DNA of 38,938 bases from a virus. The translations under genes were made by a program, and so were the position numbers. Below the pieces are notes generated by a model, which saw only the letters and a list, made by a program, of their open reading frames with translations, was not told the origin of the DNA and searched no databases. The DNA lies in the IMG/VR virus record IMGVR_UViG_3300022542_000148. One strand, written 5' to 3'. Each line of letters starts with the position of its first letter. Position 1 is the first letter of the stretch. Below, piece after piece: positions 1 to 38,938 of the stretch.

Positions 1-141
1 GATTCGTCTACGCAACGATTTCATACCTCCAGATGCTACGTTGGATTCTAATGGTGAGGAATTGGCGGCGCAGTGGGAGGACGCGGGAACTCCGCCCAAC
101 AAAGTGGGGTGGACTAGTGGGGTGGAATGGTTCACCGGCAA
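1..141. repeat. Terminal overlap copy 1 (identical to 38798-38938); marks circular closure or terminal redundancy of a 38,797-bp genome
   Basis: Base-by-base identity of the first 141 and last 141 bases of the window. Confidence 0.95.
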
Positions 142-3980: not shown

Positions 3981-4809
3981 CTTTGTTCTCCCGTATGTCG
4001 TCAGTTATATAATCAAACTTCCTATCTATCGGATGCACCCAGAGCTCCCCTTGTTCCCTACGTAACCACAGCAGTTGTCCTATCTCAAGGATGCGGTCTA
4101 TGCCGTGCTTACTTATTTGGCCCCACTCCTTGTAGATACCGTACACATGCTGCCACATACTCAATTCATCGGTTAGCTCAGATAAATCTTTAATTAATTT
4201 TGATTTATATCTACTGTACCTAAACTTGTATGCAGCCTCCCCATCCTCATCTATAAGCAGTTGGTGATACAGCCCTGGGATGTTATCCACACTATCCCCA
4301 GTGACCAGCTGTACATAGAAGTTTCTAAGTGCTTGATATCTATCAACCTCATAACTCTTTCCTGTTCTGTAATTGTAGTGCACTCCTGCTAACATGTCAA
4401 GGTCTTTATCTATATGGCAGATAACAAAGTCATCGAAGTTATCGAACTCATATGAACGGATACCTACTACATCCTCAGCCTCCTGGCCCACACACAATAC
4501 CGCTCCCCGTTGCTTTACTAAGTACGCACGTAGCTCCCTATAGAACTGTGGACGGTTTGATGTCTCCCTGTTGCCTTTGTAAGGCTTCATCGTAGCTATA
4601 GAATCTCTGTAGTTGGTGTCCGTACCCAAATACAATTCTAACATTGAACATTCTGCACCATCAAGAATGTTATCTACGGATTGCCTCAACAATTTGACAG
4701 CGAATACTCTGTCCTCTTCTAGCTTATCTGTCTGGTAGCCTATAGAGTAGATAAGACTATCAGCATCCACCAAAGCAACCCTCTCTGTTATACTGTGCTG
4801 CTCTTTCAT
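3973..4809 (-). CDS. 5'-3' exonuclease / flap endonuclease (FEN, PIN + H3TH)
   Basis: Motifs VDADSLIY, YKGNRE, GQEAEDVVG, HIDKDLDML, GDSVDNIPG. Confidence 0.85.
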   Translation of the reverse strand: MKEQHSITERVALVDADSLIYSIGYQTDKLEEDRVFAVKLLRQSVDNILDGAECSMLELYLGTDTNYRDSIATMKPYKGNRETSNRPQFYRELRAYLVKQRGAVLCVGQEAEDVVGIRSYEFDNFDDFVICHIDKDLDMLAGVHYNYRTGKSYEVDRYQALRNFYVQLVTGDSVDNIPGLYHQLLIDEDGEAAYKFRYSRYKSKLIKDLSELTDELSMWQHVYGIYKEWGQISKHGIDRILEIGQLLWLRREQGELWVHPIDRKFDYITDDIRENKDE

Positions 4810-5984
4810 TCGTCTTCTCCTATAGTTAATAGTAGTTTCTTCGTTATCATCAACGGTCTATCTAATTCGTTTGAGGGTAGATGAAAGAGTAGGGGTCGTA
4901 GGGATTGTTGGCATACACTCTTCAACCCTCGCGCACCAAGCTTAAGTTCTAGAGCTTGATCTACAATATGGTTTACAGCATCCTCGGTGAAGTATGCCTC
5001 CACTCCATATGATTTGAACTCATTCACTACTTGGGACATGATACAACGTTCCGGAAGAGTGAAGATTTTATAGATCATATCTCTATCTAAGTTTTTTAGT
5101 ACGGCGATGATGGGGAGCCGACCCATTAACTCGGGTATCATACCGTTCGCTGTAAAATCAGATATGGAAGCCTTGTTCAATAGATTAGATTTCTCAGCCT
5201 TAGATAAGAGTGGGGCAGAGAATCCAATACTCTTACCGTCCAAGCGTTTAGAGATGATTTGGTCCAGTCCCGAGAAAGCTCCGCCAAAGATAAACAACAT
5301 GTTGGATGTGTCCACGGTGCCACAATATGTGACACTCTTTATGGTACACTCTGTACCTTCCACTAGTTTTAGGAAGGCTTCTTGTACGCTGCGCCCATTA
5401 ACATCTTTACCATTACTATTACTGGTACGTATCTTATCTGCCTCATCTACATATATGATTCCGTACTCAGCTATTTTCTTAATTAAGTCCGACTTATCGT
5501 AACGACTCATGTAGAGGGTATCGTAATTTTTTTCGACCAACGTACGAGCATTTTCAAATAAATCAATGATGCATTCATCTACATCCCTGCCCACATACCC
5601 AGCAGAGGTGAAGCCGGTGGCATCTTGTATAGTCACAGGCAAAGACACAGCCTCTGCCAACGCCTTGATGAGATGTGTTTTACCACAACCTGTGTTGCCT
5701 ACTAACAGTATGTTATTCTTTTCAAAATAATAATCATCATCTCTTTCGAGTTCTTTATTCTTCATAGACAATAATCTATTCCACGCTGCGATAGCTACTA
5801 ACTCCTTAGCTTTGTCCTGTCCGATCACCGTCCTATTTAATTCCTCCACTATTTGCTTGGGGGTCATCAACTCCACCTCAAAAACATCCTCTCCCGGCGG
5901 ACCTTCTCCCGAACCGTAATTATTCTCGTATTCTTGTATGATAGTTGCCCATGCATTTACATCATTAGCTTTTCTTCTGGACAT
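4806..5984 (-). CDS. clpX: ClpX-like AAA+ unfoldase without an N-terminal zinc-binding domain
   Basis: Collinear with ClpX by eye: VIGQDKAK, Walker A GNTGCGKT, pore loop GYVG, Walker B IIYVDEADK, IGF loop (KSIGFSA), GMIPELMGRLP, GARGLKS; no Cys in the first 44 aa. Confidence 0.85.
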   Translation of the reverse strand: MSRRKANDVNAWATIIQEYENNYGSGEGPPGEDVFEVELMTPKQIVEELNRTVIGQDKAKELVAIAAWNRLLSMKNKELERDDDYYFEKNNILLVGNTGCGKTHLIKALAEAVSLPVTIQDATGFTSAGYVGRDVDECIIDLFENARTLVEKNYDTLYMSRYDKSDLIKKIAEYGIIYVDEADKIRTSNSNGKDVNGRSVQEAFLKLVEGTECTIKSVTYCGTVDTSNMLFIFGGAFSGLDQIISKRLDGKSIGFSAPLLSKAEKSNLLNKASISDFTANGMIPELMGRLPIIAVLKNLDRDMIYKIFTLPERCIMSQVVNEFKSYGVEAYFTEDAVNHIVDQALELKLGARGLKSVCQQSLRPLLFHLPSNELDRPLMITKKLLLTIGEDE

Positions 5985-5998
5985 AGTAATCTCCTAAA

Positions 5999-6415
5999 TT
6001 ATGGTTTGATTATTAAGGGAAGGTTGGCATACTCTTCTCCGCAAATAGATTTAGCAAAATTATTCAATGCTTCTAGAGGCAACTTCACTCGTTCATCTGC
6101 CGCTAAACCCGCAGCCTCAGCGTCCCTTAATACAGATAGTCCGCTAATGATATGAGCTATATGATATCTTCCGCTATCCCTAGCATAGTCCTCGCCTGCG
6201 AGATACAATAATAAATGTCTTTGTGCAGCGTTAACATAAACTAAGTTATCTAGTGGCTCGTCTACCGAGAGCCAATTAAACTTTCCATACTTAGGTACAC
6301 CGTCGATCATCCCATCTGACAAATCGACCCAAGCGGTTAATGGGATATGATCGAACCTCATCTTAACGCTTCCCGCTGCTGCTTTGGGGTCAGTGACTTT
6401 CTTTTTATTTGGCAT
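5999..6415 (-). CDS. DUF5664-like protein (family remembered as the dATP/dGTP diphosphohydrolase N-terminal domain)
   Basis: 138 aa; pattern K.RFDHIP ... PKYGKFNW ... AAQRHLLLYLAGEDYARDSGRYHIAHI. Confidence 0.45.
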   Translation of the reverse strand: MPNKKKVTDPKAAAGSVKMRFDHIPLTAWVDLSDGMIDGVPKYGKFNWLSVDEPLDNLVYVNAAQRHLLLYLAGEDYARDSGRYHIAHIISGLSVLRDAEAAGLAADERVKLPLEALNNFAKSICGEEYANLPLIIKP

Positions 6416-6701
6416 AATCTTTACCCTCCAACATTTCAGTTAACTTTTTAACGTGCACCTTATTGAACACTCGCCGCCAGACATAACTTCTAGCCATGCT
6501 TACAAACGTGAGTACCACAGTCATAAATAGATTACTTCCTGCTCCCACATTCCACTCAAACCCTGTCCAGATATACATACGTATCTCAGGAGCGCAGTAA
6601 GAAGCTAACTGAGATAATGTGAATGCTATAAACATCCCGCTACCTATATTAACTACGGCCTCCAGTCCTGCGTGTTTCTTAGATTGCCCTAAATGTTTCA
6701 T
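6405..6701 (-). CDS. Small membrane protein (98 aa)
   Basis: Start moved to ATG 6701 (TGATG overlap with the polymerase stop; GGGAGG ~10 nt upstream); hydrophobic helices. Confidence 0.7.
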   Translation of the reverse strand: MKHLGQSKKHAGLEAVVNIGSGMFIAFTLSQLASYCAPEIRMYIWTGFEWNVGAGSNLFMTVVLTFVSMARSYVWRRVFNKVHVKKLTEMLEGKDYAK

Positions 6702-11218: not shown

Positions 11219-11394
11219 TTCTCACCCACTAAGATTAGAATCACCATAAAAATAAGTAAACCACAGATAAGACCCAAAGGAAACAAGATAGGTAAGAACA
11301 CTAACCACCACGAGGCAGTGATAACACCTGATACCTTCAACACTATAAGTAATAGAGTGGCCAACATAGCCGCATTATTTACTAAAGTTTTCAT
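11215..11394 (-). CDS. Small membrane protein (59 aa, two hydrophobic helices)
   Basis: Not in the ORF track (<60 aa); ATGA start/stop overlaps at both ends. Confidence 0.7.
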   Translation of the reverse strand: MKTLVNNAAMLATLLLIVLKVSGVITASWWLVFLPILFPLGLICGLLIFMVILILVGEK

Positions 11395-11963
11395 GTCATT
11401 AATCCTCCACGAAGTAGATGTCGCACAGCAAAATCATCTATATTATCTAAATATAATTTATACCTTGTACCAGATAAATTGACAATTACCCCCTCTGCAG
11501 GATGAAATCCGTTAACCTTACTGCCATGATCTCTTAGGCCTACTAAGATGCCATGAATAGAATCCAAGTTGAACGGTCCCTTATAGAGTAGGGGAACTGG
11601 CTCAACCAAATGTTTTAATCCCTCGAGCACTTCCAAGAACGGGTCAAAACTAAAAAATTTACGTTCTCGTAACCCTTCAGAGTTCTGAATCCCAGGCCCA
11701 CACCACTCGCCGTAGTGTCTACCTGGACCCAGTACATCATACAAAGCTTGTAGATTCTCCCCAGCCCATTTATAGAACCCAAAGTTATCATGTAGTGCGC
11801 ATAGTTTCCTGTTGCGGGACCCGGCGAACCATTGTATGCAGCCAGAAGAATCCTCCCGAAACGTTATCTGAGCATTTGTACCTTCCATCTTCTGGGTAAT
11901 AATCATGTCTGCGTCCATAAAACGTTTAATCTTAGGCCACCGTTTAAATTCTAAGTCCCGCAT
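11391..11963 (-). CDS. Minimal RNA ligase-like nucleotidyltransferase (Rnl2 / RNA_ligase family, adenylyltransferase domain only)
   Basis: 190 aa; motif I QKMEGTN (T4 Rnl2 has EKIHGTN), YGEWCGPGIQ, AEGVIV, YKLYL; GGAGG SD. Confidence 0.55.
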   Translation of the reverse strand: MRDLEFKRWPKIKRFMDADMIITQKMEGTNAQITFREDSSGCIQWFAGSRNRKLCALHDNFGFYKWAGENLQALYDVLGPGRHYGEWCGPGIQNSEGLRERKFFSFDPFLEVLEGLKHLVEPVPLLYKGPFNLDSIHGILVGLRDHGSKVNGFHPAEGVIVNLSGTRYKLYLDNIDDFAVRHLLRGGLMT

Positions 11964-14339: not shown

Positions 14340-14542
14340 ACTACCCTCCCCTTATAATTTAATCTTTCATTACAATCACGGCAGTGATAAGTGGGGCGGT
14401 ACGACCGTCCTTCCCCAACCCAGCAGTTGAATTTCTGATCTTTATGTTTACATTTACTAAGTTTGTACCAAGCCCGTATGCTCTTATTAACGACTGTCTG
14501 ATACCGTTTAGGCAACGATGCATACATATCTAACACTTTCAT
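14336..14542 (-). CDS. Hypothetical Cys-containing protein (68 aa)
   Basis: GGGAGGG SD and ATGA overlap; CKHK...C...CRDC. Confidence 0.65.
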   Translation of the reverse strand: MKVLDMYASLPKRYQTVVNKSIRAWYKLSKCKHKDQKFNCWVGEGRSYRPTYHCRDCNERLNYKGRVV

Positions 14543-14712
14543 ATTACCCTCCCAGAGGCCCGTAGCTCCCTCTCTCGCGCTTCTTTGCCCAACTCGAAGG
14601 CTGAGGTCAGATACAGTAGAATAAGGCTGCTAGCAGCTCCTGATGAACCCTCAGCTACATCTTTAACTAACTGGTTACGCATCATTTCGATATCAATTAA
14701 ACTTGTATTCAT
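14539..14712 (-). CDS. Early small protein, paralogue B (57 aa)
   Basis: Start set at ATG 14712 (ATGA overlap); shares AEGS...ILxYLTSAFELGxEARERxLR with the upstream gene. Confidence 0.7.
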   Translation of the reverse strand: MNTSLIDIEMMRNQLVKDVAEGSSGAASSLILLYLTSAFELGKEARERELRASGRVI

Positions 14713-14888
14713 AAGTCTCTCACCCTCCATTCGGACCTAAGATCTCTCTCACGAGCTTCTTCACCTAATTCAAAGGCTGAGGTCAGATACATTAGAATAA
14801 TGCCGCCGATGGCCTCTGTGGAACCCTCAGCCATATCTTTCATAAGTTTCTCATACAGTATGTCGACATCTTGTAAGCTTTTACTCAT
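14709..14888 (-). CDS. Early small protein, paralogue A (59 aa)
   Basis: AGGAG 9 nt upstream of ATG 14888; paralogous to 14539..14712. Confidence 0.7.
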   Translation of the reverse strand: MSKSLQDVDILYEKLMKDMAEGSTEAIGGIILMYLTSAFELGEEARERDLRSEWRVRDL

Positions 14889-14900
14889 AATCATCCACTC

Positions 14901-18658: not shown

Positions 18659-19009
18659 GTGTCAGTAACCCACAAACCAACAACAGAGAATCGAGCTAAG
18701 GTAGCAGCCTTATCCTCATTCGGTATTACACAGCTTAAGATATGTGCTTATCTAGGCATCAGTGAGCCCACACTACGTAAGTACTACGGCCCTGAGCTAA
18801 TCAATGCACGCATAGATAAGATAGTACAGGTAGCTAACGCATTATACCATAACGCTGTATCTAATAACAATGTAACAGCGCAGATATTCTTCTTGAAGAC
18901 ACAAGGCGAATGGAGAGAGACCAATAGAGATGAGACGGCAGAGAAGCCTGACATAGGTAAGATACAAATCGAGGTACTCAACGGTAAAGCGGAGGTCAAA
19001 GATGGATAA
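18659..19009 (+). CDS. Helix-turn-helix DNA-binding protein (small-terminase-like or regulator)
   Basis: GTG start 8 nt after AAGGAG; HTH ITQLKICAYLGISEPTLRKY; AQIFFLKTQGEWRE motif remembered from HTH-type small terminases. Confidence 0.4.
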   Translation: MSVTHKPTTENRAKVAALSSFGITQLKICAYLGISEPTLRKYYGPELINARIDKIVQVANALYHNAVSNNNVTAQIFFLKTQGEWRETNRDETAEKPDIGKIQIEVLNGKAEVKDG

Positions 19010-19190
19010 TACATTCTCATATAAAGGATATACCAGTACCCTAAACTGTGCCGTAGGTGCATATTATGGACAAATCAGGTCTATTGATGCTCTTGTTAGA
19101 TATTGGGGCGGAACGAAAGAATCAGCGAGACGTGACTTCGAGCGCGCTGTTGATTATCATCTCACAACTCTGGAGGTCAAAGATGGATAA
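19002..19190 (+). CDS. HicB antitoxin N-terminal-domain-like protein, copy 1 (62 aa, no DNA-binding domain)
   Basis: FSYKGY...YYGQIRSIDALVRYWGGTKESARRDFERAVDYHL fits the remembered HicB-like pattern YKGY..S......F.G.V.GI.D...F.G.T..E....F...VD.YL. Confidence 0.55.
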   Translation: MDNTFSYKGYTSTLNCAVGAYYGQIRSIDALVRYWGGTKESARRDFERAVDYHLTTLEVKDG

Positions 19191-19377
19191 TACATTCTCA
19201 TATAAAGGGTATATCGGTTCAACACATTATGCCGCGGAGTCTGGTGTATATTACGGACAAATTAGGTCTATCAGTGCTCTTACTATCTATTACGGCTCGA
19301 CAAGAGAATTTGCGAGGCTTGACTTTGAACGCTATGTTGATTATCATCTTACAACTCTGGAGGTCAAAGATGGATAA
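19183..19377 (+). CDS. HicB antitoxin N-terminal-domain-like protein, copy 2 (64 aa)
   Basis: Tandem paralogue of 19002..19190; same start (MDNTFSYKGY) and end (HLTTLEVKDG). Confidence 0.55.
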   Translation: MDNTFSYKGYIGSTHYAAESGVYYGQIRSISALTIYYGSTREFARLDFERYVDYHLTTLEVKDG

Positions 19378-19741
19378 CCAAACTAGATTCAGTTTCAGCT
19401 TCGTACAAGGTGATATAGACATGCAGATGAGCGTTGCTGGTGACATAGAAGCTAACACCGTAGTACAACAGTTCGCTCAGTTCCTATCAGCTGCAGGATA
19501 CGACCATGAGGTCATCCTAGAGGGTATGGAGACATACCTAGACCCATATACACCAGATGTTGACGGCGATGATACTAAGTATGAGTTGACTGAATTAGGT
19601 AAGATGAATACTGATGGCTGGATTAAGGCCTCAGAAGCTAGTAAGCTTGAAGCAGAGGCCGAGGCAGCACTTACACGTCTAGATGATGATGTACGTCAAC
19701 AATGTATGAACAGTACAGTAGACCAGAATTGGTCGTTATAG
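19370..19741 (+). CDS. Hypothetical acidic protein (123 aa)
   Basis: Starts in the third copy of the GGAGGTCAAAGATGGATAA junction. Confidence 0.65.
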   Translation: MDNQTRFSFSFVQGDIDMQMSVAGDIEANTVVQQFAQFLSAAGYDHEVILEGMETYLDPYTPDVDGDDTKYELTELGKMNTDGWIKASEASKLEAEAEAALTRLDDDVRQQCMNSTVDQNWSL

Positions 19742-20036
19742 ACCAGCAACAGGAGCTTAGGGGGGTAAGTCTGACTTATCCTGGGAACTGTGATCGGGGA
19801 CCTTCGGGCGCGTAGCAGGAGTTGGTAGGGTTAGGCCAACACTAAACTAGTACAATACTCGGCTGTTCGAGATGCGGTAGCCTTCAAGGCTTTACTAGAT
19901 ATGCCTAGACAGCCGACCTATTTATCGGCGTGTGTTTTATTACCATACGGTACTATTACGCACATTTTCACACAAAAGTAATCGTTTTTCACATGTACGG
20001 TACAATTATGAACGTTTTGAAACAGTCTGCTTAAGT

Positions 20037-20108
20037 GTGGTCATAGCTTAACGGTAAAGCACCTGAATGTGACTTAGGTAGATGTGGATTCGAATTCCAC
20101 TGGCCACC
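20037..20108 (+). tRNA. tRNA-His (anticodon GUG)
   Basis: Hand-folded cloverleaf: acceptor GUGGUCA/UGGCCAC, D stem GCUU/AAGC, anticodon stem CCUGA/UUAGG with loop AUGUGAC, T arm GUGGA-UUCGAAU-UCCAC, discriminator C. No encoded G-1 (U at -1). Confidence 0.8.
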
Positions 20109-20270
20109 CCTAAGCGGATTGATAACGTAAGGTGATGCTCGACGAGTTTGGGGGTAAACCAAGGCAGGTGGACGGACGAAGCTATCACTGTCGTATACTG
20201 ATACAATTAAATATTGTAAATGTATACGCCCCCTAATCTATCGATTGGATTGATGACATAAGGTGAGACT

Positions 20271-20453
20271 ATGATGAACATAACAGAGGAACAATATGAC
20301 GTATTAACTGCGCAGTATGTAGATGAGTATGATAAATTATACGAAATGAATAGAGATAGTAGAGGAATACTTTTGACTGCCACTTTAGCGATGGATATAT
20401 TACATCACGTGATCAATGATCGATATCGGGAAAAGAACAAGTATCTAACATAA
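20271..20453 (+). CDS. Hypothetical protein (60 aa)
   Basis: AAGGTGAGACT-ATG initiation region identical to that of the next gene. Confidence 0.6.
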   Translation: MMNITEEQYDVLTAQYVDEYDKLYEMNRDSRGILLTATLAMDILHHVINDRYREKNKYLT

Positions 20454-20462
20454 GGTGAGACT

Positions 20463-20882
20463 ATGGCAATCAAGAACGCTGGCAAATATAGAGCACTATA
20501 CGAGAGGTTAGGAGTACGTTCCAAATTGGAACTAACTATACAAGAAGAACTTAAGGAGAAGGGTATAGACTTCGGCTATGAGACAGAGAAGCTCCAATAC
20601 ACCCCTAACCCTAAGACGAGAACATACACACCTGATATACTGCTAACCAAGCAAGATGGCACTACATTATACGTAGAGATTAAGGGTTACTTCAAGCCTG
20701 CTGATAGAATGAAGCATTTGGATGTACGTAGATGTAATCCAGACTTAGATATACGATTCGTATTCCAGAATCCTAAGACTAAGATAACTAAGACAAGTAA
20801 GACGACGTATGCGATGTGGTCAGAGAAGAATAACTTCAAATGGGCCGCTAAGACTATACCTGATGAATGGTTGAATGAATAG
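20463..20882 (+). CDS. T7 endonuclease I (gp3)-like Holliday junction resolvase
   Basis: Collinear with remembered T7 gp3 motifs: YTPDILL, YVEIKGY, DRMKHL, PDLDIRFVF, TTYAMWSEK, IPDEWL. Confidence 0.8.
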   Translation: MAIKNAGKYRALYERLGVRSKLELTIQEELKEKGIDFGYETEKLQYTPNPKTRTYTPDILLTKQDGTTLYVEIKGYFKPADRMKHLDVRRCNPDLDIRFVFQNPKTKITKTSKTTYAMWSEKNNFKWAAKTIPDEWLNE

Positions 20883-20890
20883 GAGTTGAT

Positions 20891-21037
20891 ATGACTACAA
20901 ACAAAGCTATTATACTAGAACTTCTAGATGAGCATGAGAGATTATACGAGAATGGTAGAGGTTCTGAAGTACCTTATCCTATACCTGGGTTGCTAGAGTT
21001 GCAGAGAGAGATTGTTATGCGGCTTATGAATGAGTAG
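20891..21037 (+). CDS. Hypothetical small protein (48 aa)
   Basis: Not in the track; AGGAG 5 nt upstream. Confidence 0.5.
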   Translation: MTTNKAIILELLDEHERLYENGRGSEVPYPIPGLLELQREIVMRLMNE

Positions 21038-21045
21038 GAGTTGGT

Positions 21046-21168
21046 ATGAGACTAAGACGACGTTTAAAGATTATGAAAGCAGCGATAGGGTTTAGGCTTA
21101 GGTCCATACCAATCCAATTAATCAACATAGTAGGGTTCGCAGCTATCATCGTACTCCTTATGAGGTAA
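21046..21168 (+). CDS. Hypothetical small basic/hydrophobic protein (40 aa)
   Basis: Not in the track; near-identical AGGAGTTGGTATG initiation region. Confidence 0.4.
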   Translation: MRLRRRLKIMKAAIGFRLRSIPIQLINIVGFAAIIVLLMR

Positions 21169-21172
21169 CATT

Positions 21173-27294: not shown

Positions 27295-28074
27295 ATGACT
27301 AGGTCCACGTATTTTGTAGATGTTGTTTCAGGTAATGCGCCTTCTGGGGCGAAAGTAGTACATAAGTTCGGCAGAAATGATGCCGTAGGTACTACTTTCG
27401 CTTCCGTGGCGATGGGCGGAATATGGAGAACACCTCAAGTTGCCGGCGCTACTACTCTTAGAGTGAAGGCGGGCGGAGACGTCGCCGACACAGCTGCTGG
27501 CGCAGGGGCTAGGTCTATTGTCTTAGAGGGAATAGATTCAACAGGCGCCTACGCTACTGAGACTTTAGTGACTGCTGGAGTCAGCGCTAGTGCGAGTACT
27601 TCTACTAGCTGGTTAAGAATATTCAGAGCGTACGTAGGGACTAGTGGAACCTATAGTGTTGTAGTTGCTAATTCACATGCGGATGTAATTACAATAGAGA
27701 ATACGGCAGGAACAGAGGATTGGGTTATAATAGATGCCAATGGTGTAGCAAGAGCGCAGAGTGAGATTGCTGCCTACACTGTACCTACAGGTAAGACGGC
27801 TTATTTAATGGATATCCACTACGCGGTAGATACTACTAAAACGACTGGTATTATTCTATTTCAAAGAGCTGGGATACTACGAGCTTCAGCCCCATATACT
27901 GCTGCTAGAGAATTACTTGTGTTGAGTGGAATAGCATCTTCAGGCACACAAACATTTGAAATACCTTTAGGGCCTTTCAAAGAACATACTGACATATGGG
28001 TAATGGCTAATGTATCAGCTACTACTAGTGAGATAGGTGTAGGTTTTGAGATACTACTTAAAGATAAAGAATAA
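27295..28074 (+). CDS. Virion structural protein of unknown role, paralogue 1 (259 aa)
   Basis: Aligns along its full length with 28084..28866 (HKFG.N.AV.TT, RTPQV.GAT.L..KAG, DTAAG.GA.S, VTAG, SAPY). Confidence 0.6.
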   Translation: MTRSTYFVDVVSGNAPSGAKVVHKFGRNDAVGTTFASVAMGGIWRTPQVAGATTLRVKAGGDVADTAAGAGARSIVLEGIDSTGAYATETLVTAGVSASASTSTSWLRIFRAYVGTSGTYSVVVANSHADVITIENTAGTEDWVIIDANGVARAQSEIAAYTVPTGKTAYLMDIHYAVDTTKTTGIILFQRAGILRASAPYTAARELLVLSGIASSGTQTFEIPLGPFKEHTDIWVMANVSATTSEIGVGFEILLKDKE

Positions 28075-28083
28075 GGAGACGGG

Positions 28084-28866
28084 ATGTCAGCATACCCACC
28101 ATACTATTTAGAAGCGTTGATGGGTAATACCCATTCAGGGGAATCTATAATTCATAAGTTCGGACAGAATAAAGCTGTCGATACTACGTTAGTACCTGTA
28201 TCAGAAGGAGGTATTTACAGAACGCCTCAAGTATCAGGAGCTACAAAACTAAGAATTAAGGCGGGTAACACAAACGACACCGCCGCAGGTTCGGGAGCAC
28301 AGTCGGTATACATCGAAGGTTTAGATGCCTCCGGAGACCCTATAAACGAAGTACTAGTTACAGCAGGCACGAGTGCTGGTGCAGATAGTGTCTATACATA
28401 TTTGAGACTAACTCGTGCCTACGTGTTGGACTCAGGAACATATGCTACAACAGGTGCAGGCTCTCATGCTGCAAACGTAGTAATAGAGAAAGCAGCAGGC
28501 TCAGAAGACTGGGCTACTATATCTTTAAATGGGTATCCAGATAGCCAAACTGAAATAGGTTGGTATACGATACCCAGAGGGAAAACAGGTTTCATAATCA
28601 CACTTGATTATAGTGTGGATTCAACAAAGATAACTACATTACAACTCGTTAAAAGGGCCGGCATACTAGATACATCTGCTCCTTATAAAGCGATGAGGAA
28701 AGTATTAGGTGTAGCTGCAATTATCAGAGATGGACAAAAAGAGTTTCACTCACCTTTAGGACCTATAGAAGAACTATCAGATGTAGGTTTCTTGGCTAAG
28801 ATAGCGTCAGCGCCTACCGCTGCGGTAGAAGTACATTTTGGAATACTATTAAGAGATAACGAATAA
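28084..28866 (+). CDS. Virion structural protein of unknown role, paralogue 2 (260 aa)
   Basis: Tandem paralogue of 27295..28074. Confidence 0.6.
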   Translation: MSAYPPYYLEALMGNTHSGESIIHKFGQNKAVDTTLVPVSEGGIYRTPQVSGATKLRIKAGNTNDTAAGSGAQSVYIEGLDASGDPINEVLVTAGTSAGADSVYTYLRLTRAYVLDSGTYATTGAGSHAANVVIEKAAGSEDWATISLNGYPDSQTEIGWYTIPRGKTGFIITLDYSVDSTKITTLQLVKRAGILDTSAPYKAMRKVLGVAAIIRDGQKEFHSPLGPIEELSDVGFLAKIASAPTAAVEVHFGILLRDNE

Positions 28867-38363: not shown

Positions 38364-38938
38364 ATGGGAAATAGATACGCAGACGATATTAAACGCATTG
38401 TGGGCATAGACCCTAACCAAAGTATCCTAGACGCTGCCTTACAGAAGGCGGCCATAGCTGCGCGTAGAGGTATAGGATACTTTAATCCTACTACGGGAGG
38501 CTCTGAGTCTATATCAGGTACTCCTAACCAGACTCAACTACCTGCTACAAAAGGGATAGGGGATTCTAAGACGGGAGCTAATACGGCAGGAGAAGAGGGT
38601 CTAGACCCCGCAGACCCACAGAATGGTGTCATCAACACAACCACTGGGCAAGCATCTGCTGAGGATGTGATAGATGGTATAAACGCTGCGGCCAAGTTGT
38701 CGCACCCACAAGTTACCGCAGCAGGATTAACCTACTCAAATAATAATTCTTTAAATTCTCTGACGGCGGTAGATTGTAATACTGGGGATGCTGTGGAGAT
38801 TCGTCTACGCAACGATTTCATACCTCCAGATGCTACGTTGGATTCTAATGGTGAGGAATTGGCGGCGCAGTGGGAGGACGCGGGAACTCCGCCCAACAAA
38901 GTGGGGTGGACTAGTGGGGTGGAATGGTTCACCGGCAA
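38364..38938 (+). CDS. Tail fibre-like virion protein, N-terminal part (continues at 2..682 across the junction)
   Basis: ATG 2 nt after the upstream TGA; open to the window end; in frame with 2..682. Confidence 0.7.
   Translation, partial: MGNRYADDIKRIVGIDPNQSILDAALQKAAIAARRGIGYFNPTTGGSESISGTPNQTQLPATKGIGDSKTGANTAGEEGLDPADPQNGVINTTTGQASAEDVIDGINAAAKLSHPQVTAAGLTYSNNNSLNSLTAVDCNTGDAVEIRLRNDFIPPDATLDSNGEELAAQWEDAGTPPNKVGWTSGVEWFTG
38798..38938. repeat. Terminal overlap copy 2 (identical to 1-141)
   Basis: Base-by-base identity. Confidence 0.95.

Follow-up and report, generated by a model that had tools for sequence, protein, structure and literature searches.

Tandem orphan HicB-like N-terminal domains without a toxin or DNA-binding domain beside a phage small terminase gene

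Paired HicB-domain genes in the slot after terS

We analysed a 38,938-nt stretch of viral DNA (IMG/VR record IMGVR_UViG_3300022542_000148), called here the window and numbered over its whole length. Two short adjacent genes in it, g1 and g2, encode proteins that resemble the N-terminal domain of HicB antitoxins (HicB_N). The features of the locus and of the rest of the genome are summarized in Table 1. A first-pass annotation made from the sequence had described the two genes as adjacent paralogs of 62 and 64 aa. This description held, as the proteins are 73% identical and the DNA forms a tandem direct repeat that is 81–84% identical. The open reading frame (ORF) list ran g2 back to a GTG at 19057. 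We set its start at the ATG at 19183, because a separate GGAGG lies six bases before this codon, as is the case in g1. Both genes are preceded by GGAGG, and each overlaps the preceding gene by 8 nt, which in the case of g1 are the last 8 nt of the small terminase gene, terS. A g1-g2 fusion or frameshift product was considered and rejected, as no slippery sequence occurs at the junction and both genes come with a Shine-Dalgarno site and ATG of their own.

Table 1 Positions of the features of the window discussed in the text.
Feature	Position	Strand	Remarks
Small terminase gene (terS), helix-turn-helix (HTH) gene	18659-19009	+	116 aa; PHROG 309 'terminase small subunit', E 2.6e-12; weak HTH_23
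Junction copy 1, GGAGGTCAAAGATGGATAA	18991-19009	+	end of terS
g1, HicB_N paralog 1	19002-19190	+	62 aa; net charge 0; isoelectric point (pI) 6.5
Junction copy 2	19172-19190	+	end of g1
g2, HicB_N paralog 2	19183-19377	+	64 aa; net charge -2; pI 5.5
Junction copy 3	19359-19377	+	end of g2
Coupled acidic gene (orf123)	19370-19741	+	123 aa; net charge -18; pI 4.05
Terminator-like hairpin	19912-19929	+	consensus scan; after the coupled gene run, before tRNA-His; weak (2 sites against 3.3 expected)
tRNA-His(GTG)	20037-20110	+	
ClpX/ClpB-like AAA+ protein gene	4806-5984	-	392 aa; AAA_2 + ClpB_D2-small
RNA-ligase-family protein gene	11391-11963	-	PF09414, E 3.5e-10
Small tandem paralog, first	14539-14730	-	63 aa
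Small tandem paralog, second	14709-14894	-	61 aa
Larger tandem paralog, first	27295-28074	+	259 aa
Larger tandem paralog, second	28084-28866	+	260 aa
Terminal overlap, left end	1-141		exact, 141 bp
Terminal overlap, right end	38798-38938		exact, 141 bp

The same 19-nt junction, GGAGGTCAAAGATGGATAA, closes terS, g1 and g2 in turn. It holds the Shine-Dalgarno site and the ATG of the next gene together with the overlapping TAA of the preceding gene. Its three exact copies were the only ones in the window, even when 3 mismatches were allowed (chance expectation 0.00). Each of the two proteins consists of approximately 58 residues of HicB fold and a 6-residue tail (EVKDG), and the DNA encoding this C-terminal tail duplicates the 3' end of terS. 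TerS itself ends in AEVKDG in the window, in AEVKNA in the related phage contig L256 described below, and in AEVKPQE in another relative, L176.

The g1/g2 pair separates terS from the remaining packaging operon. The gap between terS and the large terminase gene (terL) is approximately 2.2 kb (19010-21172) and contains g1, g2, orf123, tRNA-His, a 60-aa ORF, endonuclease I and a 48-aa ORF. In many relatives, terS homologs adjoin terL upstream, and terS directly abuts terL. L176, with a TerL 70% identical to that of the window, has a RusA-like resolvase in place of endonuclease I. The genes terS, g1, g2 and orf123 are translationally coupled in an operon of the lysis/packaging direction. As this coupling to terS lies downstream of the lysis genes, expression of the pair is likely late; scans for promoters and terminators were uninformative on the timing. 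The last gene of the coupled run, orf123, had no family match. It corresponds in shortened form to a homologous 225-aa gene of L256 (4919-5596), sharing both of its ends and lacking the part between them, and its acidity may recall DNA-mimic anti-restriction proteins.

We compared the two copies codon by codon. Over 62 codons, the synonymous divergence (dS) was 0.44 and the nonsynonymous divergence (dN) was 0.19, giving a dN/dS of 0.43, and dN was lower than dS (Fisher p = 0.028). The differences cluster in codons 11-50, and the fold-determining residues Y7, G9, G25, F48 and V52 are retained in both proteins, which are unusually rich in tyrosine. We infer that the copies diverged under moderate purifying selection.

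Relationship to the HicB antitoxin family

Both proteins matched PHROG 9151 ('HicB-like antitoxin'), with E-values of 1.2e-7 and 2.7e-9, and the matched part spans positions 1-59 of the 119 in the profile. The g1+g2 alignment was compared by hhalign with 22 full-length HicB-family proteins, and columns 1-60 aligned onto columns 5-64 of 119 with a probability of 98.6% (E 7.5e-16). The members of this set for which a source name is given are named HicB family, and nearly all of the set bear PF05534. A profile built from non-window domains only gave 77.5 bits for g2 and 71.6 bits for g1. An exhaustive profile search of 1.84 billion representative proteins returned 341 matches at E<=1e-3; the 105-120-aa matches that were scanned bear PF05534 'HicB' at residues 55-105, just past the part aligned with g1 and g2. 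A second search returned 1379 proteins, mostly of 108-115 aa with PF05534. At the sequence level, these results confirm that g1 and g2 are homologous to residues 1-60 of a 'YKGY' subfamily of HicB antitoxins of 108-115 aa, in line with the earlier assignment of both to the toxin-neutralising N-terminal domain of HicB.

Direct searches of Pfam, NCBIfam, PADLOC and PDB sequences with g1 and g2 gave no match. We attribute these negatives to gaps in the libraries, with homology present; in the case of Pfam, PF05534 covers only the C-terminal half of the full-length relatives. The N-domain of the full-length relatives matched no Pfam model above the cut-off and showed sporadic sub-threshold PF21748 only. 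Profile searches of the PDB, run with both the domain and the full-length alignment, returned chance matches only, a single-sequence word-index protein search found nothing beyond the two window proteins, megablast of the locus against phages gave no match, and the contig index had no record of the window's own protein. Two candidate matches were rejected. The sole tblastn match in INPHARED (MT836442.1, 'Bacteriophage sp.'; L090) is a fragment that carries SecA and a peptidase as well as a complete hicA-hicB pair and looks bacterial rather than phage-derived, and the single-protein match in IMG/VR was a false positive caused by a chance 'MDNTFSYK' seed within an 835-aa protein.

In the AlphaFold2 model of g2 (pLDDT 89, pTM 0.75), a long helix follows five beta strands. 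Foldseek listed 50 PDB matches, of which 6g1c_B, the N-terminal domain of Burkholderia pseudomallei HicB, had the highest TM-score (TMq 0.69, root-mean-square deviation 1.9 Å over 54 columns); its E-value of 4.3 is not significant and places it 41st by E-value in the list. No E-value against PDB was significant for the model of this very small domain. The double-stranded RNA-binding domains (dsRBDs) of TRBP2 and Staufen were also among the fold matches (TMq 0.45–0.49). The best matches from the viral structure library were small phage proteins with TMq of 0.69–0.87, several of them annotated as 'nuclease of the RNase H fold, HicB family'. The profile and structure comparison with HicB proposed in the first-pass annotation thus came out in part: Pfam gave nothing directly, but the hhalign comparison was strong and a HicB domain had the highest TMq listed.

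We collected 270 family members including the two window proteins. A ribbon-helix-helix (RHH) domain is present in 129 members, 52, counting the window pair, are stand-alone domains (50 among the 268 members from outside the window), 8 contain 2-3 fused copies, and 81 have other architectures, many of them looking truncated or frameshifted. The fused proteins (P0003, 160 aa; P0004, 182 aa; P0007, P0013, P0014, P0047, P0076 and P0120) carry two or three HicB_N domains per chain and parallel the tandem gene pair of the window at the protein level.

The genomic contexts of these classes were compared. Full-length relatives lie directly after a gene of approximately 84 aa, with a 4-nt overlap in the bacterial loci (L002-L008 and L090), and the product of this gene was matched by Pfam HicA_toxin with 36.4 bits in L090, where the cut-off is 27, and with 25.2 bits in L006. 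Of the full-length copies in the IMG/VR loci, about half adjoin a HicA-like ORF. Contexts of the stand-alone domains include a bacterial hicA-hicB-hicB_N trio (L091), a phage gene adjoining the tape measure gene (L102), and tightly packed runs of small genes without HicA. A very common stand-alone HicB_N of 62 aa, P0110, which is indexed in 2049 blocks of the collection, has a non-HicA gene of 84 aa as its coupled neighbour in L257; there (4750-6472), a resolvase and two solitary HicB-like genes of PF15919 adjoin it and make up with it an orphan HicB-like cluster on a mobile element. Small proteins with a HicB fold and no obvious partner are also seen repeatedly in phages such as Seurat and Vid5, which we take to be virulent.

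Both window proteins end at family position ~60, where the RHH part described by PF05534 starts, in agreement with the earlier statement that they stop before the usual RHH/HTH domain. The neighbours of the pair are terS and orf123, with no adjacent hicA. The Pfam scan of 40 small window ORFs found no HicA_toxin at E<=0.05, and the best match of a local HicA profile on the six-frame translation of the window (segments of at least 30 aa) had an E-value of 1.3. Within the limits of these two tools, the first-pass remark that no HicA-like partner was found in the genome stands, and the comparisons confirm the locus as a real orphan HicB-domain pair without a DNA-binding domain.

The pair might nevertheless be the antitoxin of a phage-borne toxin-antitoxin system with an unrecognised toxin, for example a neighbouring small gene. 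Such an arrangement would suit the tight coupling to the neighbour genes, and P0110 exemplifies pairing with a non-HicA gene. However, the downstream gene orf123 was rejected as a toxin candidate, being strongly acidic and not toxin-like, L256 has a different gene after its HicB_N, and no toxin family was matched in the window. We consider a phage-borne pair very improbable.

A single-copy relative and the phage genome

L256 (ENA contig ERZ25073595 NODE_184, 40.4 kb) has the same gene order as the window. It carries a single HicB_N gene of 63 aa, P0100 (4361-4552), which shares 8 nt with the end of terS. P0100 is flanked on each side by the junction GGAGGTGAAGAATG, which is of the same type as that of the window, and the gene that follows, of 58 aa, is not the one found in the window. 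The HicB_N slot after terS is conserved in at least two related phages. The ancestral state was presumably one copy flanked by junction repeats. Given the single-copy L256, the simplest origin of two copies with three junctions is therefore unequal crossover between the 19-nt repeats, and the two-copy state of the window probably arose in this way.

The identity between the window and L256 differs widely among the shared genes. Endonuclease I is 88% identical, followed by orf84 (80%), the amidase (77%), orf187 (65%), orf102 (62%), TerL (61%) and TerS (50%, compared with 44% between the window and L176). The acidic gene orf123 is 43–62% identical, and HicB_N is 36–41% identical. Thus, HicB_N is the fastest-diverging shared gene, yet it is kept in place.

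We scanned 241 other terS/terL loci of relatives, consisting of 80 IMG/VR terL, 80 metagenome terL and 80 IMG/VR terS loci and that of Hafnia phage TS33, and none of them contained a HicB_N gene. Because of this result and the direct abutment of terS and terL in many of these loci, HicB_N is not a core packaging component. A packaging or late accessory role, in which the two proteins would cooperate with the small terminase or control late mRNAs, would be in keeping with their translational coupling to terS in both carrier phages and with the dsRBD-like fold suggested by the TRBP2 and Staufen matches. Against the absence from all 241 loci and the frequent direct contact of terS with terL, we regard such a role as quite improbable.

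It could also be asked whether the genes are functionless, that is, a captured 5' fragment of hicB whose ORF is kept only for translational coupling of the downstream genes. The truncation exactly at the domain boundary, the tail derived from the terS 3' end and the lack of a partner toxin would agree with a remnant, as would a dN/dS that is just moderately low over 62 codons and the position of HicB_N as the most diverged syntenic gene. However, the slot has been retained between phages whose TerL proteins are only 61% identical, dN is significantly lower than dS, and all fold-core residues are kept in both copies, with the fold predicted at high confidence. Stand-alone members of like length are also common, as counted above. 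A remnant is therefore unlikely in our view.

The locus shows traits of an accessory locus, namely variable presence among relatives, the lowest syntenic identity, and 19-nt repeats that permit changes in copy number. Conservation of the slot, fast divergence and repeat-flanked amplification would fit a counter-defence gene. HicB_N may also represent a repeat-bounded gene accordion after terS, able to expand and contract, in which the duplicates of this phage would have switched from acidic to neutral and been retargeted to a host effector other than canonical HicA, as a type II antitoxin domain domesticated and neofunctionalised into a modular anti-defence binder; we give this version a low probability.

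The ends of the window overlap exactly, so it represents a closed complete genome of approximately 38.8 kb, either as a circular assembly or with a terminal repeat. It encodes a DNA polymerase, primase-helicase, large terminase, portal, major head protein and tape measure, as well as an amidase, endonuclease I, an RNA ligase and a ClpX-like AAA+ protein. The window proteins scanned included no member of an integrase or repressor family, in agreement with the earlier remark that no lysogeny genes were recognised. TerL is 57–59% identical to those of Kagunavirus/Jersey-type phages and of Hafnia phage TS33, all of which are classified in Guernseyvirinae. The Guernseyvirinae are virulent phages. 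The phage is apparently lytic.

Tandem duplication recurs across the genome. A second small pair of tandem paralogs, 56% identical and without a family match, lies near the start of the leftward gene block, and a larger pair, 49% identical, directly follows the major head protein gene. The AAA+ protein is encoded in the replication arm and seems unusual at this phage size. The RNA-ligase-family protein, the tRNA-His and the HicB domains invite the speculation of a common theme of coping with host RNases.

Possible function and relation to known systems

Among the readings considered, the most likely function of g1 and g2 is that of orphan antitoxins directed against a host HicA-type toxin, serving as counter-defence. 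The first-pass annotation had proposed such decoys, and our results support its proposal in part. We hold this reading tentatively, at somewhat less than even confidence. Each protein would bind a host RNase toxin of the HicA type (dsRBD fold) via its beta-sheet/helix face, and the bound toxin would be blocked sterically, as in solved HicAB complexes, where HicB's N-terminal region sterically blocks the HicA active site (PMC6159526). If the host's own labile HicB is lost in infection, the phage N-domain would then prevent abortive infection. The autoregulatory DNA-binding half would be unneeded by the phage, and two diverged copies might widen the range of toxins or raise the dosage. Such a decoy fits proteins that are encoded by an apparently virulent phage without a cognate toxin, and whose closest homologs by sequence are HicA-linked antitoxins.

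Several observations weigh against the decoy. Type II antitoxins are usually specific to their own toxin. In the N-domains of the 129 RHH-bearing members, the median for net charge is -7 (pI 4.4), with 126 of them at -2 or below and only 3 at -1 or above, whereas g1 and g2 are near-neutral (0 and -2); the L256 ortholog P0100 stays acidic, with a net charge of -10. Six positions that are 85–99% conserved in full-length members (S17, D20, E37, D54, Y55 and C59) are all substituted or deleted in g1 and g2, and in g1 two residues of the acidic hairpin are deleted. The first five of these positions are putative HicA contacts in this subfamily. Acidic HicB residues form salt bridges to His and Lys of HicA in the solved complex (PMC6159526). 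The loss of acidic character in g1 and g2 weakens the case for a HicA decoy. The Foldseek match to 6g1c_B was not significant, as noted above, and the probable late expression of g1 and g2 would be poor timing for counter-defence. An anti-phage role of HicA is itself a proposal so far (PMC10865869). In view of the near-neutral charge, the changed family positions and the probable late expression, we grade the decoy as plausible only.

The charge and residue changes could instead reflect a binder retargeted away from HicA. The HicB fold would then have been kept as a protein- or RNA-binding scaffold, with another host effector, such as a different toxin or a defence protein, or an RNA-binding factor as the target. 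In addition to the near-neutral charge and the six lost family-conserved positions, the tyrosine richness of both proteins, the coupling of the common P0110 with a non-HicA gene, the recurrence of partnerless small HicB-fold proteins in phages such as Seurat and Vid5, and the quick divergence from the L256 ortholog are consistent with retargeting. However, no alternative partner was found, the nearest sequence homologs are HicA-linked antitoxins, and the L256 ortholog retains the canonical acidic character. We regard retargeting as possible but doubtful.

We compared the pair with known systems. The PF05534 HicB antitoxins ('HicB family', COG4226-type, type II HicAB) share with it the homologous N-terminal 60 residues and the same predicted fold of beta-sheet and helix. 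The window pair differs from them in having no C-terminal RHH domain and no adjacent hicA, in its near-neutral charge, and in the change of six near-invariant positions. HicB proteins of 60-90 aa without a DNA-binding domain make up Gerdes classes 1 and 2, in which they are antitoxins paired with HicA, and one example is carried by Planktothrix phage PaV-LD (PMC10865869). A DNA-binding domain is therefore not a defining feature in these two classes. These modules resemble the window pair in size, in lacking a DNA-binding domain and in gene overlap with translational coupling, but they pair HicB with HicA, whereas the window has no HicA and carries a tandem duplicate coupled to terS.

Orphan HicB genes have been reported elsewhere. 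Solitary hicB genes have been noted in defence islands (PMC10865869), and ORF24 of the lytic vibriophage R16F is an orphan HicB-family antitoxin by descriptive annotation (PMC10152775). Like the window pair, PHROG 9151 and R16F ORF24 represent HicB-family genes without hicA in lytic phages, with the function given by annotation. Orphan HicB-domain proteins without a DNA-binding domain are thus a kind already annotated in phages. Compared with such orphan phage HicBs, the window has the N-domain only and two diverged copies. The new elements are the conserved terS-linked slot, the tandem duplication mediated by the junction repeats, and the charge switch.

T4 Dmd counters RnlA and LsoA and is not homologous to a host antitoxin. 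We know of no earlier type II antitoxin-domain homolog that acts as a decoy of a virulent phage, and none of the published phage anti-toxin-antitoxin proteins that we found is a demonstrated decoy of this type. AdfN, a DarG-like enzyme that acts against DarTG1, was presented in 2025 as the first antitoxin homolog of a lytic phage shown to function in counter-defence (PMC11825919). Both AdfN and Dmd are like the proposed decoy in concept, as in each case a lytic phage has a toxin-neutralising protein and no toxin. They differ from it in that AdfN is an enzyme that reverses the modification made by the toxin and Dmd lacks homology to the host antitoxin. Surveys of viral metagenomes list antitoxin genes as presumed counter-defence (PMC10504277).

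The locus is a clean natural example of gene amplification, as junction repeats that contain a ribosome site, a start and a stop permit unequal crossover. Should g1 and g2 neutralise a toxin of the host, we would know of no earlier type II antitoxin-domain homologs used as decoys by a virulent phage, and the pair would provide indirect evidence for a role of HicAB in phage defence, which is as yet a proposal. If HicA is not bound, the charge switch would make the pair a useful case of an antitoxin fold repurposed.

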